Assembly: GCA_020721205.1 (NCBI GenBank)
Contig: DYNF01000010.1
Location: forward strand, 1-54,865
DNA from: Prochloron sp. SulCav_FS08_3_32_3330
GTDB lineage: Bacteria; Cyanobacteriota; Cyanobacteriia; Cyanobacteriales; DYNF01
Direction: 5' to 3'
DNA: 54,865 nucleotides
The translations under genes and the position numbers were made by a program. The notes under the pieces were generated by a model. It saw nothing but the letters and a program-made list of their open reading frames with translations, was not told the origin of the DNA and did not search any database. Position 1 is the stretch's first letter. Each line of letters begins with the position of its first letter. Shown one piece after another: positions 10,039 through 54,637 of the stretch.

Positions 10039-10064
10039 TTTATTTTTAGTAAACTAATTAATTT

Positions 10065-10123
10065 AGGTTTGTTGTTGGGCTTTAGCACCATCTAATTATA
10101 GTGCTAAAGCCCAACAACAAACC
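10065..10123. repeat. Palindromic repeat unit (GTTGTTG-GCTTTAGCAC family) forming a perfect ~23-bp stem hairpin
   Basis: ggtttgttgttgggctttagcac - catctaattata - gtgctaaagcccaacaacaaacc. Relatives lie at 14070-14112, 19749-19806, 31886-32138, 35868-36104, 51725-51760 (half) and 54639-54865. Confidence 0.75.
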
Positions 10124-10156
10124 TACATTTATTTAATTATGCTCAAAAGCAAATCC

Positions 10157-14069: not shown

Positions 14070-14112
14070 AGTTTATTGTTAGACTTTAGCACTCAAGATA
14101 CAACAACAAACT
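14070..14112. repeat. Degenerate copy of the palindromic GCTTTAGCAC repeat family
   Basis: gtttattgttagactttagcac-tcaagat-acaacaacaaac. Confidence 0.4.
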
Positions 14113-17088: not shown

Positions 17089-19719
17089 ATGACTACCACC
17101 GAATATACAAGTTATACTTCAGCTTCCGCCGAAATTAATACAGGGGTAATACGTCTTAAACCTCAACAATTTATTCACATTTTAGATAATAATACCGGGG
17201 TGACACGCCTTGAAGTGGGACCTCAAACGATTACGTTAGGGGATGCGGAAAGGCTTGTTTTACAACCTACTCAGATGATTATTATACCCCCACGTCACTA
17301 CGGTATTATTGCTAATCCGGTTCTGCGATCTGAGGATAATCAGCCGATCGCTGATCAATATGGGCAAATTCGTTTAAGCTATGGAGATGAGGAAATTCGT
17401 TTTGCTCAAGAGCCTTTTCCTCTGTATCCGGGTGAAGAATTGAAAGGAAAAGTCACAAAACTTCAAGTAGTTGAAACGAATCAAGCGTTAAGATTAAAAG
17501 CAATTCGAGATTTTTCTGAGGCAATTAATATTAATAATGAAACAGAAATGATTAACCGCATCGCTGGAGATGAATGGTTATTTGAAGGTCCCGGTACTTA
17601 TAATCCGCGCATTGAAGTGGAAATAATGGAAAGTGTGAGTGCTTTGATTATTAAACCTAATCAGGCTTTGCGGTTGATGGCACGGCAAAATTGCGTAGAT
17701 CGTCAAGGTTATCGTCGTAAAGCGGGGGAAGAATGGCTGGTAAGGGAAGAAGGGGCTTATTTACCCGGTGTAGATGAAGAAGTGATAGATGTAATTAATG
17801 CTTATGTACTAACGGAACAAAAAGCTCTACATTTAAAAGCTAAACGCACTTTTACGGATCTTTTTAACCGTCAACGGAAAGCAGGGGATGAATGGTTAGT
17901 AACTTTTGAGGATACGGAGATTCATCTTCCTGACGTTTATGAGGATGTAGTGGGAGAAGTGAGGATTACGACTTTAACCGATCGCCAGTGGTGTGTGGTG
18001 TTAAACCCGATTGATAGTAATGGTAAACCCCAGTTAGGTTTTCGGGAAGTACGTCAAGGCTTAACTTCTTTCTTTTTACATCCGGGGGAATATTTGGAGA
18101 GTGGCATCCGTAATGTGTATGTATTAGGAGAGCAGGAAGCGTTATTATTAAAGGCAAGAGAGACTTTTGCTGAGGTGGTAGATCAGACCAATATCACTCA
18201 TCAACCCGGAGATTTATGGATGATTACAGGACCAAGAGATTATATTCCAAGAGTAGAAGTAGAAGTAATTGAAACGAGAAAAGCTATACCTTTAGATAAA
18301 AATGAAGGTATTTATGTGAGGGATATTCAGAATGGAGAATTAAAGTTAGTGAGTGGACCTCAAGCTTATATGTTAAGTCCTTATGAGGATTTATGGTCAA
18401 AAGAACTACCAAAAGTGGTAGAAGATTTAATTATTCAAAAAATTGATCCTTTTTCCGATCGAGGAGGACAACAATATCGGGATATGACCTATTTAAGAGA
18501 AGCGGAGGCAGTTTCTGCTCCTGAAATACCTACTAAAAGGGATAAAACCAGAGCAGTGGTTTTTCATGTGCCTCAGAATGCGGCGGTACAGATCCACGAT
18601 TATAAAGAGCGTACGGCAAGAACGGTTTTTGGACCTGATTTAGTGATGTTAGGACCTGATGAATCCTTTACGGTGCTAAGTTTATCAGGGGGTAAACCCA
18701 AACAGGCTAATTTAATTAAATCTTTAGCTTTATTATTAGGTCCTGATTTTATGACGGATATTTTCACCGTAGAAACTTCGGATCATGCGCGTTTACAGTT
18801 ACAATTATCTTATAATTGGTATTTTGATATAGATAAAAATGATGAAAAAACAGCATTAAAACTCTTTCAAGTACCGGATTTTGTGGGAGATGCCTGTAAA
18901 GCGATCGCATCGAGAGTAAGGGGGGCAGTAGCCTCACAAAAGTTTGATGAATTTCACCGTAATTCTGCCAAAATTATTCGTCATGCGGTTTTTGGTATAG
19001 ATGATGAGGGTAAAACTCGTAATGAATTTCGTTTTAATGCGAATAATTTAGTTATTACCAATATTGATATTCAATCCGTTGAACCAGTGGATGAAGAAAC
19101 TCTTAAAAGCCTTCAAAAATCCGTACAAATTGCCATTCAAATTACCACCGATGCTCAAGAAGCCGCCGCTCGTCATGATGCTGAACGCATTGAACAAGAA
19201 GCGAAAGCCCGTTTAGAGCGTCAAGTCATTGTGGATCAGGGAGCGGCAGAAGAACAGAAAAAACATCTTTTAGAATTACAAGCTCAGAATGCGGCGATTA
19301 AATCCTCCGGTCAGGCGATCGCTGAAGCAAAAGCTAAAGCAGAAGCCTCACAAATCGAAGGACAATTAGCCGTACAATTAGCTCAACAGGATGCTGAGGC
19401 TAAACAGATTCGTGCCGAGTCAGAATTGGCATTATTATGCGCTCGTCAAGAGGCAGAATTAGCTCATAAACAAGCTTTAGTTAACCTCGAAATTGAACAA
19501 GCTCAGAAAATGGCAGAAATTACGACGAAGGAATATGAGGCAAAAGTAGCCGCTTTAGGTAGTGAAACCATACAGGCGATCGCCCAAGCGGGACCGGAGT
19601 TACAGGCGCGTTTATTACAGGGATTAGGTATTCAAACCATGTTAATAACGGATGGTAACACTCCCATTAATTTATTTAGTACAGCACAGGGTTTAATTCA
19701 ATCTCAAATAAAAGATTAA
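17089..19719 (+). CDS. mvp: Major vault protein (MVP) homologue, full length and eukaryote-like
   Basis: 876 aa. Tandem MVP repeat domains of about 55 aa (QALRLKAIRDF..., AGDEWLFEGPGTYNPRIEVEI, QALRLMARQNC..., AGEEWLVREEGAYLPGVDEEV, KALHLKAKRTF..., AGDEWLVTFEDTEIHLPDVYEDV). Shoulder region has VPDFVGDACKAIASRVRGAVAS. C-terminal Ala/Glu/Gln-rich cap-helix coiled coil (AQEAAARHDAERIEQEAKARLERQ...). From memory these motifs are near-identical to metazoan MVP. Confidence 0.85.
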   Translation: MTTTEYTSYTSASAEINTGVIRLKPQQFIHILDNNTGVTRLEVGPQTITLGDAERLVLQPTQMIIIPPRHYGIIANPVLRSEDNQPIADQYGQIRLSYGDEEIRFAQEPFPLYPGEELKGKVTKLQVVETNQALRLKAIRDFSEAININNETEMINRIAGDEWLFEGPGTYNPRIEVEIMESVSALIIKPNQALRLMARQNCVDRQGYRRKAGEEWLVREEGAYLPGVDEEVIDVINAYVLTEQKALHLKAKRTFTDLFNRQRKAGDEWLVTFEDTEIHLPDVYEDVVGEVRITTLTDRQWCVVLNPIDSNGKPQLGFREVRQGLTSFFLHPGEYLESGIRNVYVLGEQEALLLKARETFAEVVDQTNITHQPGDLWMITGPRDYIPRVEVEVIETRKAIPLDKNEGIYVRDIQNGELKLVSGPQAYMLSPYEDLWSKELPKVVEDLIIQKIDPFSDRGGQQYRDMTYLREAEAVSAPEIPTKRDKTRAVVFHVPQNAAVQIHDYKERTARTVFGPDLVMLGPDESFTVLSLSGGKPKQANLIKSLALLLGPDFMTDIFTVETSDHARLQLQLSYNWYFDIDKNDEKTALKLFQVPDFVGDACKAIASRVRGAVASQKFDEFHRNSAKIIRHAVFGIDDEGKTRNEFRFNANNLVITNIDIQSVEPVDEETLKSLQKSVQIAIQITTDAQEAAARHDAERIEQEAKARLERQVIVDQGAAEEQKKHLLELQAQNAAIKSSGQAIAEAKAKAEASQIEGQLAVQLAQQDAEAKQIRAESELALLCARQEAELAHKQALVNLEIEQAQKMAEITTKEYEAKVAALGSETIQAIAQAGPELQARLLQGLGIQTMLITDGNTPINLFSTAQGLIQSQIKD

Positions 19720-19748: not shown

Positions 19749-19806
19749 GGTTCGTTGTTGCGCTTTAGCGCCACAATTCTATAGTGCTAAAGCACAACAA
19801 CGAACA
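19749..19806. repeat. Palindromic repeat unit (GCTTTAGCGC variant) between convergent mvp and the NB-ARC gene
   Basis: aggttcgttgttgcgctttagcgcc-acaattctata-gtgctaaagcacaacaacgaac. It probably also acts as a bidirectional terminator. Confidence 0.7.
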
Positions 19807-19828: not shown

Positions 19829-21235
19829 TTAAACCTGATTTTTTCTTAATTGTTTAAAATATTCTTTTGCAATGCGAATTAATTGAAAACTATGCTGATT
19901 ATTATTTTCTTGCTTTAAAAAAGCTTGTTCTTTTAAACTTTGTAAAGCAATTAAAATCTCAGAAATAGAATAACTTGATCCTAGATAATCAATAATTTCT
20001 TTAGTAGACATTTTTTGACCATTTTGACTATTAACAAAAAAACTAATAATTTCATTTTCTAACTTTGACCATCTTTGAGATTGTTTTAACAAAGTTTCGG
20101 AAAAATTACCAATTAAAATTGTCCCCAAATTAACAAATTCAGAAATATTCCCATCAAACAATTCCTGAATATAATCACTAACTTCATTCAAAAGAAAAGG
20201 ATTACCACAATAATCATTAATTAAAACATCAAAATCTTTTTCTCGATCAGCCATTAAACCTTTTTGTTTCAATAATTCTTTCCCATCATGTTTAGATAAA
20301 CCTGTCACAGTTTTTATTTTGACTGCATCGAGATTTTTTGCCAGTAAATTAACCTCAAATAAAGACTCTTGAGAAGTAATTAATAAACAACTTTGATGAG
20401 AAGATTCCCCAATTCTTTTCAGAAAAGTACCATAATTTTCAAAACCTTCTTTATATTTTTTAAAAGGATCTTTTTCCTTAATTAATAATTCTCCCCGATC
20501 TAAAATTAAGAGACATCGGTATTTATGTAAATAATAAATTAAAGTTTCTATTTGTTGATTAATATTATTAGTTTGGGGATAATCAGGAGCAATTTGTTTG
20601 AGAAAATCAGCTAAAATTTTATCAAGAACCGGATTATAAGCTAAAGATTTCCAATTAATAAATTGAAATTGATTTTGATTTTCCTCAATCAATTTTTTCG
20701 CCAAAAAAGTTTTACCCGATCCCCCTATTCCTACTAAATTAACAAGATGACAATTCTCCTCAATAATCCATTTTTTTAGATGATTTAATTCAGTTTTTCT
20801 GCCATAAAAATTAGCAATTTTCGGGGATTGTACCAAATCATAATAAGGAGAAGATTCTGAATCAATAATAGGCACAAAAGTTTCTGAAATTTCACACAAA
20901 CCTCTGATCGCAGAAGCAATATTTTCCTTATTCAGATGACACTCAAAAATACCAGAAAGTATTTTCAATAAACGAGGACCTACCACTTTTTGTAAATAGG
21001 TTTCTTGATATCCTGTTAAATCCGCTATTTCCCGATAAGTTTTTCTTTGTAATGCCCCCTCTAAAAACTTAGTTTGTACATCATTCAAATGTTTTTTTGT
21101 CTCCCGAAAAACCTTTTTATCTAAATAAGCAATTATACTTTCTATTTCCTGTAATTTTTCATTACTATTTTTATTTAAAGAGATATCATCAAAAGTTGTT
21201 TGTTGATCTTGATTCATTTCCATTAGGCATACCAT
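19829..21235 (-). CDS. STAND NTPase: N-terminal sigma70-r4/LuxR-like HTH domain + NB-ARC (AP-ATPase) domain + winged helix; no repeat sensor domain
   Basis: 468 aa. Walker A is VGIGGSGKTFLAKKL, Walker B is CLLILDRGE and the GxP-like motif is YCGNPFLLNEV. N-terminal about 130 aa (KHLNDVQTKFLEGALQRKTYREIADLTGYQETYLQKVVGPRLLKILSGIF) is paralogous to the N-terminus of the 172-aa protein at 52896-53414. Confidence 0.75.
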   Translation of the reverse strand: MVCLMEMNQDQQTTFDDISLNKNSNEKLQEIESIIAYLDKKVFRETKKHLNDVQTKFLEGALQRKTYREIADLTGYQETYLQKVVGPRLLKILSGIFECHLNKENIASAIRGLCEISETFVPIIDSESSPYYDLVQSPKIANFYGRKTELNHLKKWIIEENCHLVNLVGIGGSGKTFLAKKLIEENQNQFQFINWKSLAYNPVLDKILADFLKQIAPDYPQTNNINQQIETLIYYLHKYRCLLILDRGELLIKEKDPFKKYKEGFENYGTFLKRIGESSHQSCLLITSQESLFEVNLLAKNLDAVKIKTVTGLSKHDGKELLKQKGLMADREKDFDVLINDYCGNPFLLNEVSDYIQELFDGNISEFVNLGTILIGNFSETLLKQSQRWSKLENEIISFFVNSQNGQKMSTKEIIDYLGSSYSISEILIALQSLKEQAFLKQENNNQHSFQLIRIAKEYFKQLRKNQV

Positions 21236-23756: not shown

Positions 23757-26700
23757 ATGAGTACATCTACCATTCTCGATCCAATTCTTGAAAATCCGAT
23801 TGAAGATTTATCTGATCCCATTCTCGAAAATGTGATCTCATATACATCTGATCCCATTCTCGAAGAAGCTTTACAAGACGTATCAGCAACATTAGCAGAA
23901 TTTGTCTATAGTGAGGATTTTCTCCCAACGATTGAAACTGTTTTCGGTAATAATTACGATACTGCTACCTTAGAAAACATCCGTCAACAGTGGGCAAACG
24001 GTGATTTTTCTAACCTACCTCAGATTGAGATTCTTTCAGGTAGCCAGTTACAGGGTGCGAATGCGGCTTATGCTGGTAAGACGAATACTATTTATTTTTC
24101 TTCTGATTTCTTAAGTCAATATGGTGATAATTCCCAAGCGTTAAAGAGTGTTTTAATTGAGGAAATTGGGCATTATGTGGATTATCAAATTAATACAGTT
24201 GATACCGTTGGCGATGAAGGGGAATATTTCTCTAATTTAGTGCGAGGGATTAAGTTGAGTGAGAGTCAAGTTCAGAGTTTAAAACAAGAAGATGACTCCA
24301 ATGTTATCAGTGTAAATAATCAGGATATCATGGTTGAACAATTTCTTCCTACAGGAACTTATACAGATGGACTTGATGGAGGGCGTTATGTTTTTCAAGC
24401 TGAAACAGCAGACTATATAGAAAAGTTTTTTGGAATACAGATCAATAACTCTTATCAGTACGATTCTGGAGACTCTTTAATTCTAAGAACACAATATTCT
24501 GGCGATGAGAAAACTTTTTTTGAAGGTGGTGGATTAACCGCAGGAATTAGTTACAATGGAGGCTCTTTTGGTGCAGGGTTTAAAGCCTATGCAGGTATAA
24601 ATTTAGGTGAAATAGATTTTGATCTGCCTTTACAAGCTCTTTTAACTGCAAGTAATTCAGGTAAAACACTTAACTTTGATTTTACAACTATTTTTGATGC
24701 CAAACTGGACTATACAATTCCTTCTGCCTATGCAGTTTTAGATTCAATTTTTGAGTATAATATTGGCTCACTGGATATATTTGCCAGTGCTGCAGGTGAA
24801 TCTATAGAAAGGACTATTTTTAATGGTGTGTCTGATACTTGGACACACAGAATGGTTAATATCAATACCTTAAATGATCCGATCGTACAAATAAATTTAT
24901 TACCCGGTCAAGTTAATTTTTTATCTTCTTCATTGAGTATTAATTCAGTCTCTTTATTAGGAGGTTTAGCAACTTTTAAAGCAAGTATTCTTCCCAATTT
25001 TAATTTTAGTATGGAAAACTCATCTACAGAGGATCAGTTTTCTATCAAGATTAGTAATCAAAGACCTCCTGATCCTGAAGATATTACTCCGGGTGATCCT
25101 AATCCTGATCCGGCTCTTCCAGATGAGTTAGCTCGTATAACCTTAAATTTTGATAAACTTCTTGATCTAGGTTTAACTGCTTTTGCAGGATTTCCATATC
25201 TTTCTGAAGATGTAACTGTTGGACCTTTCAGTGCAGGATATCGGTTACTACCAATAGAATTAACTGGTATAGCAAGTGCAATTTATGAACTTGAAGTTGG
25301 TATCAGAAATACTGAACCCAAAATAATTGAAGGTGAATTTTTAGATATTGCTACCTCATACACTGAGCTTGATGAATTACTTGCCAAAGATACAGATAAT
25401 GATTCAAAAATAGATGTCACATTTGAACTAAATCCAGATATTTTCTTGAAACCAAACTTGGCATTAGACTGGCAAACAGAGTTTAATGTAGATATCGGAA
25501 GACTTACTGCAAAAGTAGATTTTAACAAACTTCCATTTCCGTTAAATTCTATTCCATTTCTAAACAATATTAGTGGAAGTGTTAATCTTATTGATTTACC
25601 TGAAATTGTTATTGATGGATTAAGTTTTCGCATTGATATTCTTGATAAGCTAGGTATTCCTAAATCTGATTTAAGTATCTCTTTTAACGATCTATATGCA
25701 ATGTTTAATAATGGTCAAAAACCTGACTTTAACAAAGTTTCTGTTGAGATACCTTTTAATGCAATTTATCCAAATATAGGAACAGCCCAAGATGATGTGA
25801 TGAGCTTACCTGAATATTTTGGAGCAGAAAACCTTTATGGTGAAGCTGGTAATGACATTCTTTACGGTAATTCTTCTGCTAATCGAATTATGGGAGCAGA
25901 AGATAATGATACTATCTATGGTCGAGCAGGGAATGATCAACTTTACGGAGAATGGGGGAATGATCTTCTTTTAGGTGAACAAGGTAGTGACTATATTAAT
26001 GGTGGTACTGGTATAGACACCGTAAGCTATAGTAATTCAGCAAATGGTGTTATTGTCAATATTAATCAATCTCTTAATTATGGCAATCAAAAACTAACTA
26101 CATTTGATCTTGAACCAAATTTCTTTATTGGTGCTGGTCAAGCTTTAGACGGTTTTGGCAATGTTGATAGTTTGGCTAACCTTGAAAATATCATTGGTTC
26201 TGCTTATAACGATATTTTAATCGGCAATGCCTTAAATAATATTATTGAAGCCGGATCTGGAAATGATATTTTAATCAGTAGTGCTGGTAGTGATCAATTA
26301 TTGGGAAATAGCGGTATTGATACAGCAAGTTTCCGCCGTGATCCTAATGGTGTTTATGTCAGTCTTCAAGATAACATTGCAATAGATGGTTTTGGTTATA
26401 TTGATAATCTTTCCAGTATCGAAAATGTTGTTGGTTCTAATTTTGATGATGAAATATGGGGTAATAATGGGATCAACGTCATTCTCGGTGGTGCTGGAAG
26501 TGATCTTGTTTATGCTTTAGATGGAGATGATCTAGTTTATGGAGAAAGTGAAAACGATACCATCTTAGGTGGTTCTGGGAATGACTACATTGAAGGTAAT
26601 GATCAAGATGATCGCCTGTTTGGTAATACCGGAAATGATGTCATCTCAGGAGGTAATGATCAAGATTATATCGAAGGTAACGAAGGTGATGATCGCCTCT

Positions 26701-29700
26701 TTGGTAACTCTGGTTATGATACCATCTTAGGTGGCTCTGGTAACGATTATATCGAAGGTAATGGTGAAGATGACAACCTTTACGGAGAATCAGGCTATGA
26801 TACCATTTTAGGTGGTTCTGGTAATGATTACATCGAAGGTAACAGCGAAGATGATCTAATCTATGGTGAATCAGGTTTTGATATCATCAAAGGTGGTACA
26901 GGCTATGACACTATTTATGGTGGTTCAGAAAATGATTATATCGAAGGGAATGAACAGGATGATCGTATTTTTGGTGAAACTGGAAATGATACCATCTTAG
27001 GTGGTAATGATAATGACTACATTGAAGGTAACGATCAAGATGATAAACTTTATGGTAATACCGGAAACGATATTATCTTAGGTGGCAATGATCAAGATTA
27101 CATTGAAGGTAACGAAGGTGATGATCGTCTTTACGGTAACTCTGGTTATGACACCATTTACGGTAACTCAGACAATGATTATATCGAAGGTAACGATCAG
27201 GATGACAAACTTTATGGTAATACCGGAAATGATGTGATCTTAGGTGGCAAAGATCAAGATTACATTGAAGGTAACGAAAATGATGATCGTCTCTTTGGTA
27301 ACAGTGGCAACGATCTCATCTATGGTAACGATGGCAACGATTATATCGAAGGAAATCAAGGTGATGACCTAATTTACGGTGATAATCCCTTTAATCCGGG
27401 TGTTGATACCCCACCAACCGACAATACCAACCATCAAGATACTATCTTTGGTAACGATGGTAATGACCAGATTCACGGTGGAGAAGATAAAGATATCATC
27501 TCAGGTGGTATTGGTAATGACCTCATCTATGGTGACTTCAAAGACGATCTCTTTGCAGGTACAGGAGATGTCATTGACGGTAACGAAGGAGATGACACTA
27601 TCTTTGGTGGTGGTGGCGAAGATACCATACATGGAAACGATGATAACGACACCATCCGAGGTGAAGGCGGGAATGATCTAATCTTTGGTGATGCCGGAGA
27701 TGACTATATTACCGGAGGTGATGGTGATGATACCATTTACGGTGGTACAGGCAATGACCTCATTTTTGGTGATAGCGGTGTTGGTAATGACCTCATTTAC
27801 GGTAATGAAGGTGATGATACTTTACATGGGCGTGTTGGTAACGATCGCATTTACGGCAATGAAGATAATGACTTAATTTTTGGTGAAGAAGGAGAAGACT
27901 ATATCGAAGGTAACACAGGTAATGATACTATTTCCGGTGGTGATGGTAACGATCACATCTTAGGAAATGAAGGTACAGACCTCATTCACGGTGATGCCGG
28001 AGATGATAATATTACTGGTAATGAAGAAAATGATACCATTTTTGGTGATACTGGTAATGACTACATTGAAGGTAACGATGGTAATGACCTAATCTCAGGC
28101 GGTGCTGATAATGATACCATTTCGGGTAATATCGGTGATGACTTCATTTATGGTGATAGCGGACAAGACACTATTCACGGTAACGAAGGCAATGACCTGA
28201 TCAGTGGTGGTACAGACAACGATATTATTTATGGTGATACCGGAAGCGATCGCATTCAAGGAGATGACGGCGATGATAATATCTATGGTGGTGCTGATAA
28301 TGATATTATTTCGGGTAACAACGGTGCTGATAATATCTATGGTGAAACCGGAAACGACCTAATACATGGAAACGATGGTGATGACTACCTCAGTGGTGGT
28401 GATGGTACTGATCTCATCTATGGTGACAATGGTAACGATAACATGGACGGTGATCTAGGGGAAGATCAACTCTTTGGTGGTGAAGGTAACGATACCATGC
28501 GTGGTGGTGATGATAACGACTCCCTCTATGGCGAAAATGGTGCTGATATTATGGAAGGTAATAACGGTAATGATAGCCTCGCTGGTGGAGCAGGTAACGA
28601 TATCATGAGTGGCGGTACCGGAGATGACTTTATCAATGGTCAAACTGGTAACGATATCATGTATGGTGATGATGGTAACGATACCATGTATGGAGAAGAA
28701 GGTGATGACAAGCTCTATGCAGGAAATGGAGATGATTACCTCGTAGGAGGTGCAGGTGGTGACTTATTAGATGGTGGTGCAGGTAAAGACTTAATTTCTT
28801 ACTACACATCCAAGGGCGGTGTTACTGTACAATTAAGCTCTGGTCATAATAAAGGTGGCGACGCTCAAGGTGATAATATTACAGGAGTAGAAAACCTTGA
28901 AGGTTCATATTATGATGACTGGCTCATTGGAGATAATGGCAAAAACACCATTATCGGACTTTCCGGTAACGATCGCCTTGATGGAAAAGCAGGTCATGAT
29001 ACCCTATTCGGAGGCTTAGGTAACGACTCTTTAGAAGGTCGTCAAGGAAATGATATCTTAATGGGTGATCAAGGTAATGATTATCTCGACGGTGGCTCAG
29101 GTAATGACTGGCTTTCCGGCGGTTTAGGAGATGATCAACTTTACGGAGGGCGATCGGGTGATGATATCCTTTCTGGTGGCGATGGTAACGACTACATAGA
29201 CGCTAGTTCAGGTGTAGACCTCATTTTCGGTGGTAATGGTAATGATACCATTGATGCAGGTTCTCATAACGATACCGTTTATGGTGGAGCAGGAAACGAT
29301 ATTATTGACGGTGGTACGGGTAGTGATATCCTTTTTGGTAACGAAGGCAATGACACTATTTATGGAGGAATGGATGATAACCTCTTATATGGTGGTCAAG
29401 GTGACGATTTACTCTATGGTGGCACAGGTAAAAGTGTTGATACCTTTGCGATCGCCCTAGCGGAAGGGATTGATACTCTCTTTAACTTCCAAGTGGGTAC
29501 GGATCGGATCGGATTAGTAGGTGATTTTACTGCTAATGATATTCTGATTAACTCAGGTCAAGGAAAGAATAAAGACGTTACCCTCACCTATAAATCTACG
29601 GGAAATACCCTCGCTATTTTGAAAGATGTGCAACTCAATAAAAATCAAACTCTGAATTTTATTGCCCTCAGTTTACCTACGATAGCAGTGGATCCTCTTG

Positions 29701-29822
29701 GTAGTGTAACTCAACCTGTACCTCCTCCAGTTTTAGGTGGTAGTGATATTTTTCCGGGTATAGTTGAACCAGCAAAACCGATTGATTCTATTCCTAGTTT
29801 TAATGAGGTAACTCTTGTTTAA
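23757..29822 (+). CDS. Giant RTX-type calcium-binding beta-roll protein (hemolysin-type nonapeptide repeats); probable type I secreted surface/S-layer or adhesin-like protein
   Basis: 2021 aa. About 650-aa non-repeat N-terminal region, then more than 100 GGxGxDxUx nonapeptides (GNDGNDYIEGNDQDDRLFGNTGNDVISGG...). DNA units at 26560-27360 are nearly identical 57-nt repeats. C-terminal about 130 aa is non-repeat (possible T1SS signal). No T1SS ABC/MFP genes are in the window. Confidence 0.8.
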   Translation: MSTSTILDPILENPIEDLSDPILENVISYTSDPILEEALQDVSATLAEFVYSEDFLPTIETVFGNNYDTATLENIRQQWANGDFSNLPQIEILSGSQLQGANAAYAGKTNTIYFSSDFLSQYGDNSQALKSVLIEEIGHYVDYQINTVDTVGDEGEYFSNLVRGIKLSESQVQSLKQEDDSNVISVNNQDIMVEQFLPTGTYTDGLDGGRYVFQAETADYIEKFFGIQINNSYQYDSGDSLILRTQYSGDEKTFFEGGGLTAGISYNGGSFGAGFKAYAGINLGEIDFDLPLQALLTASNSGKTLNFDFTTIFDAKLDYTIPSAYAVLDSIFEYNIGSLDIFASAAGESIERTIFNGVSDTWTHRMVNINTLNDPIVQINLLPGQVNFLSSSLSINSVSLLGGLATFKASILPNFNFSMENSSTEDQFSIKISNQRPPDPEDITPGDPNPDPALPDELARITLNFDKLLDLGLTAFAGFPYLSEDVTVGPFSAGYRLLPIELTGIASAIYELEVGIRNTEPKIIEGEFLDIATSYTELDELLAKDTDNDSKIDVTFELNPDIFLKPNLALDWQTEFNVDIGRLTAKVDFNKLPFPLNSIPFLNNISGSVNLIDLPEIVIDGLSFRIDILDKLGIPKSDLSISFNDLYAMFNNGQKPDFNKVSVEIPFNAIYPNIGTAQDDVMSLPEYFGAENLYGEAGNDILYGNSSANRIMGAEDNDTIYGRAGNDQLYGEWGNDLLLGEQGSDYINGGTGIDTVSYSNSANGVIVNINQSLNYGNQKLTTFDLEPNFFIGAGQALDGFGNVDSLANLENIIGSAYNDILIGNALNNIIEAGSGNDILISSAGSDQLLGNSGIDTASFRRDPNGVYVSLQDNIAIDGFGYIDNLSSIENVVGSNFDDEIWGNNGINVILGGAGSDLVYALDGDDLVYGESENDTILGGSGNDYIEGNDQDDRLFGNTGNDVISGGNDQDYIEGNEGDDRLFGNSGYDTILGGSGNDYIEGNGEDDNLYGESGYDTILGGSGNDYIEGNSEDDLIYGESGFDIIKGGTGYDTIYGGSENDYIEGNEQDDRIFGETGNDTILGGNDNDYIEGNDQDDKLYGNTGNDIILGGNDQDYIEGNEGDDRLYGNSGYDTIYGNSDNDYIEGNDQDDKLYGNTGNDVILGGKDQDYIEGNENDDRLFGNSGNDLIYGNDGNDYIEGNQGDDLIYGDNPFNPGVDTPPTDNTNHQDTIFGNDGNDQIHGGEDKDIISGGIGNDLIYGDFKDDLFAGTGDVIDGNEGDDTIFGGGGEDTIHGNDDNDTIRGEGGNDLIFGDAGDDYITGGDGDDTIYGGTGNDLIFGDSGVGNDLIYGNEGDDTLHGRVGNDRIYGNEDNDLIFGEEGEDYIEGNTGNDTISGGDGNDHILGNEGTDLIHGDAGDDNITGNEENDTIFGDTGNDYIEGNDGNDLISGGADNDTISGNIGDDFIYGDSGQDTIHGNEGNDLISGGTDNDIIYGDTGSDRIQGDDGDDNIYGGADNDIISGNNGADNIYGETGNDLIHGNDGDDYLSGGDGTDLIYGDNGNDNMDGDLGEDQLFGGEGNDTMRGGDDNDSLYGENGADIMEGNNGNDSLAGGAGNDIMSGGTGDDFINGQTGNDIMYGDDGNDTMYGEEGDDKLYAGNGDDYLVGGAGGDLLDGGAGKDLISYYTSKGGVTVQLSSGHNKGGDAQGDNITGVENLEGSYYDDWLIGDNGKNTIIGLSGNDRLDGKAGHDTLFGGLGNDSLEGRQGNDILMGDQGNDYLDGGSGNDWLSGGLGDDQLYGGRSGDDILSGGDGNDYIDASSGVDLIFGGNGNDTIDAGSHNDTVYGGAGNDIIDGGTGSDILFGNEGNDTIYGGMDDNLLYGGQGDDLLYGGTGKSVDTFAIALAEGIDTLFNFQVGTDRIGLVGDFTANDILINSGQGKNKDVTLTYKSTGNTLAILKDVQLNKNQTLNFIALSLPTIAVDPLGSVTQPVPPPVLGGSDIFPGIVEPAKPIDSIPSFNEVTLV

Positions 29823-30835: not shown

Positions 30836-31885
30836 ATGATCGCTACAACTCAAAAACAATTACCCATTCCGGCTTTTTTTGATCCTCGTAAAGTTCAAGA
30901 AGTCTGGCGAGTTCCCTACCAACAACGGGCGCAAGATGCTCAAAATTGGGCTAAACAATATAAAATTAAACCCGCCGCTAGTGATAAAACTCGCATTTGT
31001 TTAATGATTATTGATGTACAAAATACTTTTTGTATTCCTGATTTTGAGTTGTTTGTCGGAGGACGCTCAGGTATGGGGGCAATAGATGATAATATTCGTT
31101 TATGTGAGTTTATTTATCATAATTTAAGTGTAATTACGGAAATTGCTCCCACAATGGACACTCACACTACGATGCAAATTTTCCATCCTTTATTTTGGGT
31201 AAATGAGGCGGGAGAAAATCCTCAACCCCATACCATGATTAGTTTAGAGGATATTCAAAAAGGAATCTGGAAAGTTAATCCTGCGATCGCCTATAGTGTG
31301 GCAAAAGGTAATTATATTGGTTTACAACAACACGCCTTACATTATACCAAAAAACTGAGTGATAACGGTAAATATTTATTAACTATTTGGCCCTATCATG
31401 CTATGTTAGGAGGGATTGGACACAGTTTAGTTTCAGCCGTTGAGGAGGCTACTTTTATTCACAATGTGGCACGTCGTAGTCAAACTAATTTTGAAATAAA
31501 AGGGGGAAATCCTCTCACGGAAAATTATTCAGTTTTGCGTCCAGAAGTGTTAGAAGGGGCAAGTGGGCATCCGATCGCTCAGAAAAATACTCGTTTTATT
31601 CAACGATTATTAGAATTTGATGGCGTAATTATTGCTGGACAAGCGAAAAGTCATTGTGTAGCATGGACTATTGATGATTTACTCACGGAAATTATGGCGG
31701 TGGATCCGGCTTTAGCTCAGAAAGTTTATTTATTAGAGGATTGTACTTCCCCCGTCGTTGTCCCCGGAATTATTGATTTTACCGATCAGGCAAATGAGAG
31801 TTTTCAGCGTTTTGCTGGGGCGGGTATGCACCTTGTGAAATCTACAACGGCGATCGCTGATTTTCCAGATTTAGACCTAAAATAA
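30836..31885 (+). CDS. Isochorismatase-family cysteine hydrolase (nicotinamidase-like) with a large internal insertion
   Basis: 349 aa. Signature is [13 protein letters not shown] (IDxQNDF-like Asp) and the catalytic Cys context is [19 protein letters not shown]. About 130 extra residues between the signature regions relative to about 200-aa family members. Confidence 0.5.
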
Positions 31886-32138
31886 CATTTTTTGGTTCGT
31901 TGTTGTGCTTTAGCACCACTTATTTTCGCGCTGAAGCGCAACAACAAACCTTTTTTGGTTCGTTGTTGTGCTTTAGCACCACTTAAAGCGCTCAAGCACA
32001 ACAACAAACCTATTTTCGCGCTAAAGCGCAACAACAAACATTTTTTGGTTCGTTGTTGTGCTTTAGCACCACTTAAAGCGCTCAAGCACAACAACAAACC
32101 TATTTTCGCGCTGAAGCGCAACAACAAACCTTTAAAAT
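31886..32138. repeat. Tandem array (about 5 units) of the palindromic GTTGTTGTGCTTTAGCAC repeat family
   Basis: ttttttggttcgttgttgtgctttagcaccacttaaagcgctcaagcacaacaacaaacc tattttcgcgctgaagcgcaacaacaaacc ... Full palindromes and half-sites alternate. Track ORFs 31804-32127(-) and 31892-32230(+) are artefacts of this array. Confidence 0.8.
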
Positions 32139-35867: not shown

Positions 35868-36104
35868 TTCAATCTTTAAGTTTGTTGTTGCGCTTCAGCG
35901 CTCAATCTTTAAGTTTGTTGTTGCGCTTCAGCGCTCAATCTTTAAGTTTGTTGTTGCGCTTCAGCGCTCAAAATTATAGGGCTAAAGCACTCAATCTTTA
36001 AGTTTGTTGTTGCGCTTCAGCGCTCAATATTATAGGGCTTCAGCGCTCAATATTATAGCGCTAAAGCAGTTTTAATTATAGCGCTGAAGCGCAACAACGA
36101 ACCT
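35868..36104. repeat. Tandem array of palindromic-repeat half-sites and full units (GCGCTGAAGCGCAACAAC variant) between sps and spp
   Basis: tcaatctttaagtttgttgttgcgcttcagcgc occurs 3 times at 34-bp period, then variant units, ending agcgctgaagcgcaacaacgaacc. Confidence 0.8.
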
Positions 36105-39299: not shown

Positions 39300-39442
39300 A
39301 AATTTTAAGTCCCAGTTTGTTTGAGTTTTCAAAAGGTATTTAACGAATGTTATCACTTTGTTTAGATTGATCTACATATTTCGTCAAGAAATGTAACAAT
39401 TTGTTATTAGTTATTGGTTTTTGGTTTTTGGTTCTTGGTTAT

Positions 39443-39484
39443 TCACTGTTCACTGTTCACTGTTCACTGTTCACTGTTCACTGA
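39443..39484. repeat. STRR heptamer array (TTCACTG)x6 overlapping the dusA stop codon
   Basis: ttcactgttcactgttcactgttcactgttcactgttcactg. Read on the minus strand it is CAGTGAA repeats encoding ...VNSEQ stop of dusA. Confidence 0.8.
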
Positions 39485-40432
39485 TAGAAGGGCATTTTTA
39501 ATCACTTGAGAGTCAGCACCCATAAGATGAGCGTTTTCACTAATAAATCTTTTCCATGCTTTAGTACCCGGCTCACCTGCAAATATTTGCAATAAATGAC
39601 GACTGATAGAATGTAATTTTAAGCCTTTACTTATCCACTCATCAATATAAGGGTACATTTTTTCGATAATTTCAACACGAGTTAAAGGTGTAACATCCTT
39701 GTGATAAATGTCTCGATCTACTGTGGCAAATAAATAAGGATTATCATAAGCGGCTCTACCGATCATTACTCCGTCTACAAATTTTAAATGCTGTTTAATT
39801 TCTTCTATTTTTGTAATACCTCCATTTATTTCGATCAATAAATGAGGAAAATCCTCTTTTAAACGATACACATCCTCGTAACGTAAGGGGGGGATTTCTC
39901 TATTTTCCTTTGGGCTTAAACCTTTTAACCATGCTTTGCGCGCATGAATGGTAAAACGCTCACATCCGGCTTCTGAGACAATCCTGATAAAATTCACTAA
40001 ATCCTCATAACGATCCAGATCATCAATTCCGATGCGATTTTTAACCGTAACGGGAATTGTAACAGCTTTTTGCATGGCGTTAACAGCGATCGCCACTTTT
40101 TCAGGAGTTGCCATTAAACAAGCGCCAAAACTGCCATTTTGCACCCGATCGCTAGGACATCCCACATTGAGATTAATTTCATCATAACCCCAATCTTGGG
40201 CAATTTTGGCACAAAAAGCTAAATTTTGAGGATTATCACCCCCTAGTTGTAAAGAAAGAGGTTTTTCTTCAAAAGAAAAATCTAATAATTTCGGGCGATC
40301 GCCATAAATAATGGCTGGAGTTGTGATCATTTCCGTATAAAGGAGAGTACACTGGGTAATTTGACGCAGAAAATAACGAAAATGACGATCAGTGCGATCC
40401 ATCATTGGTGCTAAACTTAAAGGATTAAACAT
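39464..40432 (-). CDS. dusA: tRNA-dihydrouridine synthase A
   Basis: 322 aa starting MFNPLSLAPMMDRTDRHFRYFLRQI. FMN-binding TIM-barrel motifs are present, including the catalytic Cys context LNVGCPS. Confidence 0.85.
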   Translation of the reverse strand: MFNPLSLAPMMDRTDRHFRYFLRQITQCTLLYTEMITTPAIIYGDRPKLLDFSFEEKPLSLQLGGDNPQNLAFCAKIAQDWGYDEINLNVGCPSDRVQNGSFGACLMATPEKVAIAVNAMQKAVTIPVTVKNRIGIDDLDRYEDLVNFIRIVSEAGCERFTIHARKAWLKGLSPKENREIPPLRYEDVYRLKEDFPHLLIEINGGITKIEEIKQHLKFVDGVMIGRAAYDNPYLFATVDRDIYHKDVTPLTRVEIIEKMYPYIDEWISKGLKLHSISRHLLQIFAGEPGTKAWKRFISENAHLMGADSQVIKNALLSVNSEQ

Positions 40433-40435
40433 AGT

Positions 40436-40545
40436 GGATAGTGGATAGTTGATAGTTGATAGTTGATAGTTGATAGTTGATAGTGGATAGTGGATAGTGG
40501 ATAGTGGATAGTTGATAGTGGATAGTTGATAGTTGATTTAATATT
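40436..40545. repeat. STRR heptamer array (GTGGATA/GTTGATA, about 15 units) abutting the dusA start codon
   Basis: gtggatagtggatagttgatagttgatagttgatagttgatagtggatag... The repeats end 3 bp from the dusA ATG (minus strand). Confidence 0.8.
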
Positions 40546-40560
40546 AATATTAATAAAAAT

Positions 40561-40647
40561 GGAGTGTGAGCGTCTCGCTCACTAGATTTGAGCATAAGTG
40601 AGCGAGACGCTAGATTTGAGCATAAGTGAGCGAGACGCTCACACTCC
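40561..40647. other. Nested perfect palindrome (22-bp outer stem, 43-nt loop containing a direct repeat)
   Basis: ggagtgtgagcgtctcgctcac-tagatttgagcataa-gtgagcgagacgc-tagatttgagcataa-gtgagcgagacgctcacactcc. The track ORF 40425-40649(-) is an artefact of these repeats. Confidence 0.6.
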
Positions 40648-40755
40648 AAAATTTGCCCAACCTATTTAGGATTACTATATTTGACAGTTGACAACTATTA
40701 ACTATCCACTGTCAACTGTCAACTAACTGATTATTGTCTCAAACAATCATAAAAA

Positions 40756-51708: not shown

Positions 51709-51823
51709 GATTTAAACCTCGTTAATTTTTGTTCGTAGTTGGGCTTTAGCCCTATTTACTTAGTGCCAATTCCTAACTACAGACTTCCTCAATAAATAAG
51801 GTAAGTCTGCGTTAATTTTGACG

Positions 51824-53980: not shown

Positions 53981-54637
53981 ATGATCAAATTATACCACGT
54001 TCCCCTTTCCTTTAATTCTCGAAGAATTTGGATTACTTTATTAGAAAAAGGCTTAGATTTTGAATTAATTGAAATGCAACTTAATGGAGATCAAATGACT
54101 CCCGAATTTGTTAAACTTAACCCTTTTCACCATATTCCCGTGTTAACAGATGGAGATTTTCGGGTAATCGAATCTTTTGCTATTCTTGACTATTTAGAAG
54201 CAAAATATCCTACCCCTCCTTTATTACCAAAAAATCCTGAATCTTTGGCAATAGTTAAAATGGTACAAATGGTAATAGTTAATGAGTTTGTCGGCTTAGG
54301 AATGCAACCTTTAATGCGTAAATCTATGCTATTAGGAGAAATCAGTGATGAGCAGTTAGAAAAAGCCCAAAAACAAACCGCTACTGTGTTAAATTTCTTA
54401 GAGGAATTATTGGGTGAAAATCCTTTTTTTGGAGGTGATCATTTAAGTTTAGCTGATATTGTGGCAGGGACAACTATTCCTTGGTTAAATATGTTAGGAT
54501 TTAGTCTTAATTCCTATCCAAAAATTCAAGCTTGGATTGCTAACTTAAATCAGCGTGAAAGTTGGCAAAAAACTGAACCTACGAAAACACAAATTGATGA
54601 TTTTGTTGGTAGAATGAAAGCGAGAATGGGTAAATAA
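53981..54637 (+). CDS. Glutathione S-transferase
   Basis: 218 aa. N-terminal thioredoxin-like GST domain is IKLYHVPLSFNSRRIWITLLEKGLDFELIE, followed by a C-terminal helical domain. Confidence 0.8.
   Translation: MIKLYHVPLSFNSRRIWITLLEKGLDFELIEMQLNGDQMTPEFVKLNPFHHIPVLTDGDFRVIESFAILDYLEAKYPTPPLLPKNPESLAIVKMVQMVIVNEFVGLGMQPLMRKSMLLGEISDEQLEKAQKQTATVLNFLEELLGENPFFGGDHLSLADIVAGTTIPWLNMLGFSLNSYPKIQAWIANLNQRESWQKTEPTKTQIDDFVGRMKARMGK

Follow-up and report, generated by a model that had tools for sequence, protein, structure and literature searches.

The dispersed hairpin repeats in this contig are very probably a GTAG-type REP (repetitive extragenic palindrome) family with a cyanobacterial RAYT, a transposase of the HuH-Y1 type that has been domesticated, as its cognate enzyme. 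REPs are miniature selfish DNA that a RAYT disperses among the genes of bacteria. The window, i.e., the whole 54,865-nt (54.9-kb) stretch of DNA that was analyzed, carries 24 copies of a 23-nt unit, GGTTYGTTGTTG-N-GC-TTYA-GC-N-C, at seven intergenic sites, where the units stand alone, pair up as inverted doublets or form tandem or mosaic arrays. The family is a GTAG-type REP in which position 8 has changed from A to T, with REPIN- and BIME-like arrangements. It was assigned to the GTAG type because GTAG is found in most relatives at the place of the window's GTTG. An earlier note on this DNA described a REP/BIME-like element that could not be placed in a named family; it can now be placed as a GTAG-type REP with a cyanobacterial RAYT clade. 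Cyanobacteria are already known to have REPs, REPINs and RAYTs, and the window repeat belongs to a known class with slightly unusual tag letters. Current understanding is not overturned by it.

Repeat Units in the Window

Searching the window with the core GTTGTTGNGCTNNAGCNC at up to 2 mismatches gave 27 matches vs 0.08 expected, and all seven sites listed in the earlier note were found to exist. GGTTCGTTGTTGTGCTTTAGCAC at up to 3 mismatches gave 16 matches vs 0.00 expected. A stricter definition leaves 24 full units, one relic with 4 mismatches plus its tail-only partner, and three fragments consisting of the mini-palindrome only:

10066–10088, + strand: REP unit, left arm of a perfect inverted doublet (GGTTTGTTGTTGGGCTTTAGCAC)
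10101–10123, − strand: REP unit, right arm of the doublet, spacer 12 nt
14070–14092, + strand: degenerate REP unit, 4 mismatches (AGTTTATTGTTAGACTTTAGCAC)
14101–14112, − strand: tail-only remnant (AGTTTGTTGTTG), decayed partner of the degenerate unit
19749–19771, + strand: REP unit, GCGC/GCGC stem, doublet left arm, between convergent MVP-like and NB-ARC genes
19784–19806, − strand: REP unit, GTGC/GCAC stem, doublet right arm
31894–31916, + strand: main array unit 1, GTGC/GCAC stem, starts 8 nt past the stop codon at 31883–31885
31928–31950, − strand: main array REP unit 2, GCGC/GCGC stem
31957–31979, + strand: main array REP unit 3, opens the 90-bp composite period
31988–32010, − strand: main array REP unit 4, T.G wobble at pair 13-22
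32018–32040, − strand: main array REP unit 5
32047–32069, + strand: main array REP unit 6
32078–32100, − strand: main array REP unit 7, polymorphic base 32088
32108–32130, − strand: main array REP unit 8
35879–35901, + strand: REP unit, tandem copy 1 of three exact 33-bp copies
35912–35934, + strand: REP unit, 33-bp tandem copy 2
35945–35967, + strand: REP unit, 33-bp tandem copy 3
35979–35990, no strand assigned: mini-palindrome-only fragment GGGCTAAAGCAC, without tail
36001–36023, + strand: REP unit, fourth same-orientation copy
36035–36046, no strand assigned: mini-palindrome-only fragment GGGCTTCAGCGC
36058–36069, no strand assigned: mini-palindrome-only fragment GCGCTAAAGCAG
36081–36103, − strand: inverse REP unit closing the 35868–36104 cluster, followed by T6
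51730–51752, + strand: singleton REP unit, canonical GTAG tag, GGGC/GCCC stem (TGTTCGTAGTTGGGCTTTAGCCC)
54639–54661, + strand: REP unit, starts 1 nt past the GST stop codon
54721–54863, − strand: five tandem REP units, 30-bp period (unit + T6-7 linker)

Five inverted doublets are present in the window. The description of the sites as pairs of roughly 23-bp perfect hairpin arms fits these doublets and not the tandem and singleton sites; even among the doublets only 10066–10123 is perfect, and the others have 2–3 arm mismatches. The doublet loops are 8–12 nt long (5–12 nt in the earlier note). The doublet region 10060–10130 folds as ssDNA at −29.4 kcal/mol (z −10.7). The arms of the 19749–19806 doublet differ, yet both mini-hairpins are intact. 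What had been listed as a half site at 51725–51760 is the singleton unit at 51730–51752.

TRF reported a 30-bp period at 54714–54865 (5.1 copies, 97% matches), a 33-bp period at 35869–36028 (5.2 copies) and a composite 90-bp period at 31921–32133 (2.4 copies, 96% matches). The 30-bp period proposed before was thus recovered and the proposed 34-bp period is actually 33 bp. In the main array (31886–32138), the 90-bp period is composed of one + and two − units with linkers T6 and TATTTTC, and the array ends 8 nt short of the stop codon (32139) of a convergent Na/Ca-exchanger gene. Site 35868–36104 holds four same-orientation units and one inverted unit, and its 33-bp tandem array is placed between the sucrose-phosphate synthase and S6PP genes. 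At 54639–54865 one + unit is followed by five tandem − units (54721–54743, 54751–54773, 54781–54803, 54811–54833 and 54841–54863), and the window end cuts this array. The REP/RAYT assignment explains the assembly breaks here and allows annotators to mask or label the repeat.

Every window site falls between ORFs and the flanks of the window units are unrelated to one another. A further match with 4 mismatches lies inside the GST gene (54357–54379) and was dismissed as chance. No Rfam match at the gathering threshold was found in the whole window, and a known structured RNA family was rejected. A CRISPR-like reading of the arrays was also rejected because the "spacers" are only 6–12 nt long and identical between periods. 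None of the viral contigs carries the unit, and a phage origin was rejected. A literature search with 12-mers from the unit returned only unrelated aptamer and primer matches.

Stem and Tag of the Unit

The 5′ part of the unit is a conserved, single-stranded tail of 11 nt holding the tag (GGTTY-GT[T>A]G-TT) and the 3′ part is a 4-bp G+C-rich stem with a TTYA tetraloop. Positions 2–4, 6–7, 9–12, 14–17, 19–21 and 23 are near-invariant among the 24 window units and 113 units profiled from S06, a MAG with more than 100 copies of the window's 23-mer. The pairing was counted in 129 distinct units that had been collected without requiring pairing. Stem cells were paired in 96.5% vs 71.5% in shuffles (0/500), all four stem pairs show compensatory changes, 102 stem cells were changed on both sides vs 20 expected, and the covariation score was 0.641 vs 0.179. 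Slid registers of the stem were 13–62% paired. Pair 13-22 is T-A, C-G or G-C and pair 14-21 is G-C or A-T, with mismatches at or below 5%. Selection on pairing in a REP/BIME-like element, as claimed earlier, therefore holds.

The conserved pairing is the 4-bp stem plus tetraloop within each unit. It is not the 23-bp long stem that had been taken as the selected structure; the 4-bp mini-hairpin is found in every unit. Likewise, the matched arm changes noticed before are real as covariation within the 12-nt mini-palindrome (position 13 with 22) and not as covariation between the long arms. One of them, GGGC...GCAC, is actually a G/A mismatch common to both arms. As ssDNA, the single-unit stem folds at −2.4 to −3.9 kcal/mol (z −1.4 to −2.2), and it is shorter than the stem of classical REPs.

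The GTTG tag is carried by 23/24 window units and 93/113 S06 units, and GTAG by 1/24 and 13/113, respectively. Strictly, most window units have T in place of the canonical GT[AG]G letter at tag position 3. The GTTG tag clearly occupies the same element position as the GT[AG]G tag of REPs. In 24-nt units, mostly from other loci, A is found at tag position 3 in at least 90%. Units at any one RAYT locus all carry the same tag type, either GTTG or GTAG. We suggest tentatively, at somewhat below even confidence, that a shallow RAYT sub-lineage replaced GTAG by GTTG as its recognition tag, with the entire REP population changing alongside, and that the window genome (23/24 GTTG) is a member. The putative GTTG sub-lineage comprises L010, L071, L072, L074, L076 and L150. 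No RAYT residue was found to follow the GTTG tag; the two sets are separated at position 97 (W/W/W/R) only, and weakly. The L150 locus (P0005) belongs to another organism and shares no nucleotide similarity with the window, and the window organism's own RAYT was not found there.

The tail, tag, 4-bp stem and TTYA loop form a compact module beside one RAYT clade, which gives a good substrate definition for biochemical work, and the GTAG/GTTG difference is a natural experiment on tag recognition. For the E. coli enzyme, mutation of GTAG abolishes cleavage (as cited in PMC3733652). If the tag switch is true, a HuH-Y1 enzyme would have changed its specificity in nature, and the system would be a minimal and tractable one for studying tag reading because the unit is only a 4-bp hairpin and an 11-nt tail.

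RAYT Linkage and Related REP Families

Since a motif scan of the 54.9-kb window found no RAYT gene, RAYT linkage in this organism is predicted from its relatives. The S06 MAG encodes a RAYT of 196 aa (L010:1257–1847) with NHYH...YIHFNP motifs, and arrays of the window-type 23-mer are found on both sides of the gene. The protein scored 93 bits on NCBIfam NF047646 (REP-associated tyrosine transposase; cut-off 80) and 23.8 bits on Pfam Y1_Tnp (cut-off 23). Its best PDB match is 4ER8 (E. coli TnpA_REP, E = 1.5e-10), to which it aligns over the HuH and YI..NPvkH motifs. Among 29 RAYT homologs, N84, H85, Y86, H87, Y144, H146 and N148 are invariant. Sub-repeats of the 12-nt tail also adjoin the RAYT in L010.

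The RAYT association check proposed in the earlier note was positive for the family. Among 57 loci outside the window, a RAYT bracketed by units of the window's architecture was found in all six that come from genome records and in 49 of the 51 from metagenomic contigs. Besides S06, the genome records are Gloeothece PCC 7424, Cyanobacterium aponinum, Calothrix NIES-2098, Capilliphycus salinus and a Microcystaceae MAG. Up to 400 nt from the gene, the metagenomic RAYT loci have 6.48 units/kb, compared to 0.29/kb elsewhere and 0.17/kb in shuffled sequence. With 49/51 loci linked at ~22-fold local enrichment, the RAYT-unit association is not incidental. S06 also encodes a second RAYT; the hairpins flanking it belong to another family, of which the window has no copies. 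Hosts in which the module is conserved beside this RAYT clade range from 35 to 66% G+C.

The RAYT clade has the motifs of TnpA_REP subclass 2.8 (Quentin et al., 2018, PMC6006769), a putative assignment made by motif alone and not with their HMMs. The shared features are the NHYH HuH motif, the YIH[YF]NP tyrosine motif, a length of ~196–199 aa and a proline-rich N-terminus. Subclass 2.8 is restricted to cyanobacteria and flanked by REPs with a 5′ GT[AG]G (PMC6006769). These REPs are called "long", whereas covariation marks the short mini-hairpin as the conserved module here. The metagenome loci extend this subclass 2.8-like clade to hosts of up to 66% G+C. The REP families GTAG-12/15/16 were described from Cyanothece/Gloeothece PCC 7424, Anabaena and Nostoc (Di Nocera et al., 2013, PMC3733652); their tag is GTAG, in contrast to GTTG in the window copies. 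The PCC 7424 RAYT is flanked by GGTTAGTAGTAGGGCTTTAGCCC units with the same architecture as in the window. GTAG-15 dimers sit within long palindromes ending in TATAG...CTATA (PMC3733652). A composite element in S06 has exactly this arrangement, with TATAG...CTATA ends, while the window copies are without the outer palindrome. The window family is probably the same as, or sister to, cyanobacterial GTAG-15/16, as compared by description and not by consensus sequence.

The window family resembles E. coli REP/BIME elements in its short extragenic hairpin units with a conserved 5′ tetranucleotide tag, in its singletons, inverted pairs and mosaic clusters with stereotyped linkers placed after genes, and in a cognate HuH-Y1 protein flanked by units. 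It differs in the stem (4 bp and a TTYA tetraloop vs a roughly 10–12-bp imperfect stem in E. coli REPs), an extra conserved pentamer GGTTY 5′ of the tag, 2–3 nt between tag and stem, and the GTTG tag itself. Binding of IHF, gyrase or Pol I to BIMEs has been reported. As in the REPINs of Pseudomonas fluorescens and others, fixed-spacing inverted doublets with systematically non-identical arms dominate in S06 and a RAYT is nearby. Unlike in REPINs, doublets are a minority in the window (five), where tandem arrays of units in one orientation are prominent, and S06 has many singletons. Nostoc punctiforme was among the genomes analyzed in the REPIN study of Bertels and Rainey (2011, PMC3116915).

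Placement, Spread and Variation Among Relatives

The clusters were intergenic in 79 of 80 cases (P = 2e-50), with a strong bias to gene 3′ ends, in agreement with the earlier claim that all copies are intergenic. Clusters were present in 50% of the intergenic regions between convergent genes, in 31% of the tandem ones and in 8% of the divergent ones. GTAG-type cyanobacterial REPs show the same bias to unidirectional and convergent intergenic regions (PMC3733652). Neighboring unit pairs in S06 have their hairpin ends facing in 32/39 cases, with stereotyped gaps of 6 or −4 nt, and 40/74 S06 clusters are singletons. In S06 the doublet clone with the most copies (14) forms part of a ~128-nt element that is bounded by terminal inverted repeats of its own (TATAGTRATTYCAA...TTGGAATTACTATA); this outer element is absent from the window. 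Because the clone sits within a TIR-bounded element, part of the unit spread may be hitch-hiking on a MITE-like element rather than transfer by the RAYT.

The downstream placement might also be expected if the hairpins were selected by the host as Rho-independent terminators or 3′-end mRNA stabilizers, and cyanobacteria are not known to have Rho. Folding energies of the doublets, −15 to −29 kcal/mol for DNA and −25 to −46 kcal/mol for RNA, indicate very stable hairpins. The outer tail flank is an A-run in 55/137 units, so that many doublets read A-run, hairpin, T-run; one example is 19749–19806 followed by UAUUUUUUUU on the minus strand. However, a terminator scan did not call the arrays, and a survey of hairpins and U-tracts found terminator-like geometry at some sites only, with U-tracts missing after several hairpins. 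Many units are singletons or same-orientation tandems that are unable to form the long stem, orientation relative to the upstream gene is unbiased (63 vs 67), and relatives of 83 and 79% identity have no units at the orthologous sites. Host selection also leaves unexplained why RAYT genes are bracketed by units and why the 11-nt tail and TTYA loop are conserved in hosts of 35–66% G+C. We consider it a rather unlikely explanation of the family, which may co-exist with the REP assignment as an exapted function. GTTG doublets in a Rho-less host might additionally be co-opted as bidirectional terminators.

Two other origins concern how the units move. At IS200/IS605 ends (IS608, ISDra2), a Y1 HuH enzyme reads sub-terminal ssDNA hairpins and the guide tetranucleotide next to them, and RAYTs are related to IS200 TnpA (Pfam Y1_Tnp). 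The units could accordingly be such ends, or IS fragments or MITEs with TIRs moved by a DDE transposase, as the ~128-nt TIR element of S06 with its 14 doublet copies would suggest. But the outer element is absent from the window, the flanks of the window units are unrelated, and singletons and same-orientation arrays are no TIR pairs. No transposon body separates left and right ends, the RAYT is not multiplied with the repeats, and RAYT genes are flanked by arrays instead of defined ends. In the motif scan of the window and L001–L056, only single-copy-type RAYTs adjoin units and no tnpB or DDE gene was seen beside them; no viral contig has a unit. The units are not IS ends, and the IS/MITE origin is exceedingly improbable. 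Small dispersed repeats (SDRs) of Nostoc were reportedly described by Elhai et al. in 2008. A RAYT-independent repeat of this kind, spread by template switching or gene conversion with RAYT proximity being incidental, would be compatible with the very small (23 nt), nested or tandem units, the partial forms (mini-palindrome-only and tail-only), the 12-nt tail sub-repeats beside the RAYT in L010, and a window without RAYT. It is very unlikely given that 49/51 independent metagenomic loci are RAYT-linked with ~22-fold local enrichment and that, in one genome with two RAYTs, each gene is flanked by a repeat family of its own.

Under the REP/RAYT assignment, RAYT catalysis, an ssDNA substrate and present-day activity in this genome are extrapolated by analogy with E. 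coli TnpA_REP and IS200/IS605 TnpA. The RAYT would bind the folded mini-hairpin and tag on ssDNA such as the lagging-strand template. It would then cut and rejoin nearby, such that units or inverted doublets (REPINs) are excised and reinserted into intergenic DNA, mostly directly downstream of genes. After insertion, clusters presumably grow or shrink locally as blocks of unit plus linker are duplicated in tandem or slip; the 30-, 33- and 90-bp periods would be such blocks, giving rise to BIME-like mosaics. As a side effect on the host, it is possible that 3′-end RNA or DNA hairpins protect or terminate transcripts.

Array lengths were compared among relatives, as the earlier note had proposed. 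At site A a 91%-identical relative has 4 units vs 8 in the window, and at site B it has 1 full + unit vs 4. The 83 and 79% relatives have no units at either site, and none across 19.7 kb. Presence or absence among relatives shows lability of the arrays and says nothing of mechanism. Since copy number differs between near relatives, the arrays can serve as strain markers. The same arrays are present in L066, a metagenome contig that was assembled independently and is 99.986% identical to the window, so they are not assembly artefacts. Judged by this identity, L066 is from the same population as the window and thus provides no array-length contrast. Base 32088, in the covarying stem pair 13-22, is A in the window (T.G wobble) and G in L066 (C-G); it is a population polymorphism.

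Repeat units and their mini-hairpins

An earlier note had reported palindromic repeats at seven intergenic sites with tandemly amplified arms. The repeat is present at all seven, every site falls between ORFs, and the 30-bp and 33-bp periods found by Tandem Repeats Finder bear out the amplification. Three sites hold arrays:

31886-32138, main site; composite 90-bp period, 2.4 copies (31921-32133)
35868-36104, second site; 33-bp period (35869-36028)
54639-54865, third array, at the window end; 30-bp period, 5.1 copies (54714-54865)

The 23-mer GGTTCGTTGTTGTGCTTTAGCAC has 16 matches in the window at three or fewer mismatches (0.00 expected from dinucleotide-preserving shuffles), and the unit core GTTGTTGNGCTNNAGCNC has 27 (0.08 expected). 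A separately assembled JGI metagenome contig of the same population (L066) shows 99.986% identity to the window over 22 kb and carries identical arrays, so the arrays are not assembly artefacts. Short-read contigs from the window organism (L057, SRR1560849) and from a 91% relative (L067, SRR13391606) end at or inside REP arrays; the family therefore fragments assemblies. L066 also differs by a single-base indel in a G-run at window position 35680, within the sucrose-phosphate synthase (SPS) gene, which splits its ORF into 654 and 59 aa (711 aa in the window). The indel reflects either an error in sequencing or a frameshift variant within the population.

A position table was compiled from oriented units, 24 from the window and 113 from the MAG Synechococcales cyanobacterium S06.Bin197 (S06). 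The 23-nt unit reads G1 G T T Y5 G T W8 G T T G12 N13 G C T T Y18 A G C N22 C23. Invariance is the rule along the unit, with variation at positions 1, 5, 8, 13, 18 and 22. Position -1 is usually A and +24 usually T, and sequences further out are unrelated among copies. Positions 13 and 22 covary in the window (T-A 10, C-G 9, G-C 1, T.G 2, G/A 2) and in S06 (C-G 86, G-C 23, other 4), and pair 14-21 in S06 is G-C in 98 units and A-T in 13. From this profile and covariation, the conserved structure is a 4-bp stem (12-15 with 20-23) closed by a T-T-Y-A tetraloop and preceded by an 11-nt single-stranded tail. A lone unit folds as a 4-bp mini-hairpin at -2.4 to -3.9 kcal/mol (ViennaRNA, DNA parameters). 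Within the population base 32088 varies between A and G, so that one unit has either a T.G wobble or C-G at pair 13-22; such a wobble is expected as a step between stems of the T-A and C-G types.

To avoid circularity in the pairing test, units were re-collected from all loci by tail, tag and loop anchors only. Among distinct forms, the 4/4 Watson-Crick stem is perfect in 106 of the 129 that are 24 nt long and in 42 of the 51 that are 23 nt long. In the formal pair count on the 129-sequence alignment (A2), 96.5% of stem cells were paired vs 71.5% in shuffles (0/500), both sides were changed in 102 cells (20 expected), extra pair types numbered 15 vs 9.4, and the covariation score was 0.641 vs 0.179. 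Slid registers were 13-62% paired. It was concluded from this count that the arm covariation described earlier is real but belongs to the mini-hairpin of each unit and not to long arms. In doublets with unlike stems in the two arms (window 19749-19806; a GCGC/GGAC composite in S06), each mini-hairpin is intact and the long stem gains mismatches.

Five doublets in the window are inverted, their hairpin ends facing across gaps of 8-12 nt. Units also meet tail to tail at two junctions bridged by a T6 linker, and nine neighbours share the same orientation. S06 clusters include 40 singletons and 31 doublets; hairpin ends face each other in 32 of 39 neighbouring pairs, and doublet gaps are stereotyped at 6 nt (14 cases) or -4 nt (6 cases, an overlapping "double foot"). 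Doublet arms are less alike than random unit pairs (18.5 vs 20.0 of 23), so the doublets are composite, their left and right arms being distinct. Folded as long hairpins, doublets reach -15 to -29 kcal/mol (z -4.8 to -10.7). S06 also contains an element of ~128 nt that is bounded by terminal inverted repeats TATAGTRATTYCAA...TTGGAATTACTATA and has a REP doublet exactly at its centre. It occurs in 14 near-identical copies in both orientations (L004:565-692 and 13 others) and holds the most abundant doublet clone. The element may be a MITE into which a REPIN was captured, or a target that REPINs favour.

RAYT genes and distribution of the units

A HuH-Y1 motif scan covered every six-frame ORF in the window and the first 56 loci. 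It yielded two proteins, both in S06, and no RAYT gene in the window:

L010:1257-1847, S06 RAYT, 196 aa, motifs NHYH...YIHFNP
L036:6555-7070, second S06 RAYT, 171 aa, motifs NHFH...YIIDNP

Against NCBIfam NF047646 "REP-associated tyrosine transposase" (cut-off 80) the L010 protein reaches 93 bits, and against Pfam Y1_Tnp (cut-off 23) it reaches 23.8 bits. The top match among solved structures is E. coli TnpA_REP (4ER8, E=1.5e-10), the alignment spanning the HuH and YI..NPvkH motifs. Arrays of the window's repeat family lie on both sides of the gene, with three tandem copies of AGCGCTAAAGCGCAACAACGAACC directly upstream. The L036 gene is flanked by another hairpin family (L036:6340-6530, GTAG-GGGTAGGG-TTTAT-CCCTACCC). 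The two RAYTs thus each have a cognate repeat of their own. The L036 flank also holds 15/16-nt GGAGGGCAACCACAAG tandem repeats, and neither these nor the L036-type hairpins occur in the window. Beside the L010 RAYT (1020-1130 and 1850-1920) the unit tail has itself become a sub-repeat of 12 nt in tandem copies (GGGCTCGTTGTT). The gene upstream (454-1065) reaches into these copies, and its last ~12 codons (..KIVVGLVVGFVVGL) and stop codon are repeat-derived.

The L010 RAYT has 463 homologues at E<=1e-10; those with a source name are nearly all cyanobacterial, and several are already named RAYT by NCBI. Homologues of Gloeothece (formerly Cyanothece) PCC 7424, Cyanobacterium aponinum PCC 10605, Calothrix NIES-2098, Capilliphycus salinus and a Microcystaceae MAG are flanked within ~300 nt by units of the same architecture. 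A metagenomic sample comprised 51 loci with homologues 41-71% identical to the L010 RAYT (host G+C 35-66%). The RAYT association raised by the earlier note proved positive for the family: the gene is bracketed by units in S06 and has units next to it at 49 of these 51 loci. Unit density was 6.48/kb within 400 nt of the RAYT, 0.29/kb elsewhere and 0.17/kb in shuffled sequence. Across RAYT loci the tail ((G/C)GTTYGTAGT) and loop (TTYA) are constant and the stem letters vary complementarily (GCGC, GGGC/GCCC, GCAC/GTGC, GGAC/GTCC, GCGA/TCGC, CGAC/GTCG, CCGC/GCGG, AGGC/GCCT). Unit positions 6-9 read GTAG at most RAYT loci, and thus represent the canonical REP tag. The GTTG tag occurs only at loci whose RAYT is nearest to the S06 enzyme (L010, L071, L072/73, L074, L076, L150) and is uniform within each of these loci. 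Of the window units, 23 carry GTTG, and the one at 51730-51752 carries GTAG.

In a scan of 185,579 species genomes, GGTTYGTTGTTGBGCTTBAGCRC matched at least 56 loci. Among the 56 matches listed, 43 are in S06 and none overlaps the window; the others are in Lyngbya, Nostoc, Microcoleus, Microcystis, Planktothrix, Phormidium, Floridaenema, Limnoraphis, Capilliphycus and one Crocinitomicaceae bin. The last (L023, a 3.5-kb MAG contig binned as Bacteroidota) has one exact unit and a nearby tail fragment, and is likely a mis-binned cyanobacterial contig, not a true occurrence outside the phylum. Viral contigs gave no match to the unit pattern.

Window SPS is closest to Crocosphaera, Gomphosphaeria and Geminocystis proteins (77-79% identity), which places the host, with G+C of ~33%, among chroococcalean cyanobacteria. 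Array lengths differ among relatives. L067 (SPS protein 91% identical) keeps the gene order. Its counterpart of 31886-32138 holds 4 units in 167 nt, arranged as two doublets, where the window has 8 units in 253 nt, and its counterpart of 35868-36104 has one "+" unit vs four. More distant relatives (83% and 79% identity) have zero units at both orthologous sites and zero in 19.7 kb.

Location was analyzed for window and S06 clusters (n=80), with the longest ORF as gene model. All but one of the 80 clusters (79) are intergenic, the non-coding background being 22% (P=2e-50). Clusters are present in 20 of 40 intergenic regions between convergent genes, in 44 of 144 tandem ones and in 4 of 49 divergent ones (convergent vs divergent, Fisher's test, 1e-5). 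Orientation relative to the upstream gene showed no bias (63 vs 67, window and S06).

Interpretation and known systems

The repeats match REPs in definition and behaviour, with REPIN-like doublets, BIME-like mosaics and, in other genomes, a cognate RAYT. The REP/BIME-like reading of the earlier note is thus supported, with its structural description corrected: the conserved module is the 4-bp mini-hairpin. If it works as E. coli TnpA_REP and IS200/IS605 TnpA do, the RAYT would read the folded mini-hairpin and tag on single-stranded DNA and would cut and rejoin beside them, which would disperse units or doublets. As summarised in PMC3733652, the E. coli enzyme binds single-stranded REP and needs the GTAG tag (Ton-Hoang 2012; Messing 2012). 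We infer RAYT catalysis, the single-stranded substrate and current activity; the window itself is without a RAYT. The arrays show subsequent growth by local duplication of unit plus linker rather than repeated insertion, since linkers differ among the three arrays (T6-7, TCAATCTTTAA, 90-bp block).

If the hairpins were primarily terminators or stabilisers, this would account for the 3'-end bias of clusters, for A-run/T-run flanks being frequent (55 of 137 units) and for the high stability of doublet hairpins. It would leave unexplained why tail and loop are conserved in distant hosts, why singletons and direct tandems exist, why units are linked to RAYT genes and why relatives lack them at orthologous sites. 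The arrays were not called in a terminator scan, and a survey of hairpins and U-tracts showed terminator-like geometry at some sites only. We keep this function as a possible secondary role. An origin of the units from a MITE or IS end finds no support in the window. In S06, however, the most abundant doublet clone (14 copies) lies inside the ~128-nt element, and some copies may therefore hitch-hike. Unit linkage to RAYT at 49 of 51 metagenomic loci makes it unlikely that an SDR-type mechanism works independently of the RAYT. Dispersal by a cognate RAYT is the reading we prefer.

RAYTs and REPs are already documented in cyanobacteria (PMC3116915, PMC3733652, PMC6006769), and REPINs were analyzed in Nostoc punctiforme (PMC3116915). 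The GTAG-12, -15 and -16 families, catalogued in PMC3733652 for Anabaena, Nostoc and Cyanothece with a peak in PCC 7424, are described there with a convergent and unidirectional bias like that of the present units. The same source describes GTAG-15 dimers inside TATAG...CTATA palindromes in Anabaena variabilis, mirrored by the S06 element with its central doublet. Likened by these descriptions and not by consensus sequences, the window family is probably GTAG-15/16. TnpA_REP subclasses 2.4, 2.7 and 2.8 occur in cyanobacteria, and the present RAYT clade matches the description of subclass 2.8 (NHYH / YIHYNP, about 199 aa, proline-rich N-terminus; PMC6006769). Possible novelty over these systems is modest. 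New aspects may be the GTTG tag replacing GT[AG]G in a shallow RAYT sub-lineage, a conserved module that is a 4-bp mini-hairpin and not a "long" REP, and its retention beside this RAYT clade well beyond low-GC cyanobacteria.

Other features of the window

7053-7314, 88-bp unit in three copies (96% matches) with its own hairpins (AAACCCGTAAAGACGGGTTT), between convergent genes; unrelated in sequence to the REP family
10157-14029 (-), 1290-aa protein with PG_binding_1 repeats (ten) and, at the C-terminus, a weak chitinase/lysozyme-like match; its stop codon is directly followed by a REP doublet
17089-19719 (+), 876-aa ORF, full-length Major Vault Protein (MVP) homologue in a cyanobacterium (Vault repeats 2.4e-63, MVP_shoulder 7e-55, Vault_2/3/4)
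19829-21235 (-), NB-ARC/STAND ATPase gene, convergent with the MVP homologue gene
23757-29822 (+), 2021-aa ORF with long internal 27/81/162-nt periodic repeats of RTX/haemolysin-type calcium-binding style, abundant GGxGxD-like codons and no Pfam match on record
39399-39483, 40431-40537, 40582-40639 and 40692-40725, heptamer tandem arrays

A bacterial MVP adjoining a STAND NTPase may merit separate study. The heptamers are ATTGGTT (six copies) followed by TTCACTG (six), ATAGTTG (15) and its reverse complement CAACTAT (five). We take these arrays to resemble cyanobacterial STRR-type repeats. They flank a short region holding an exact 28-bp repeat in two copies.
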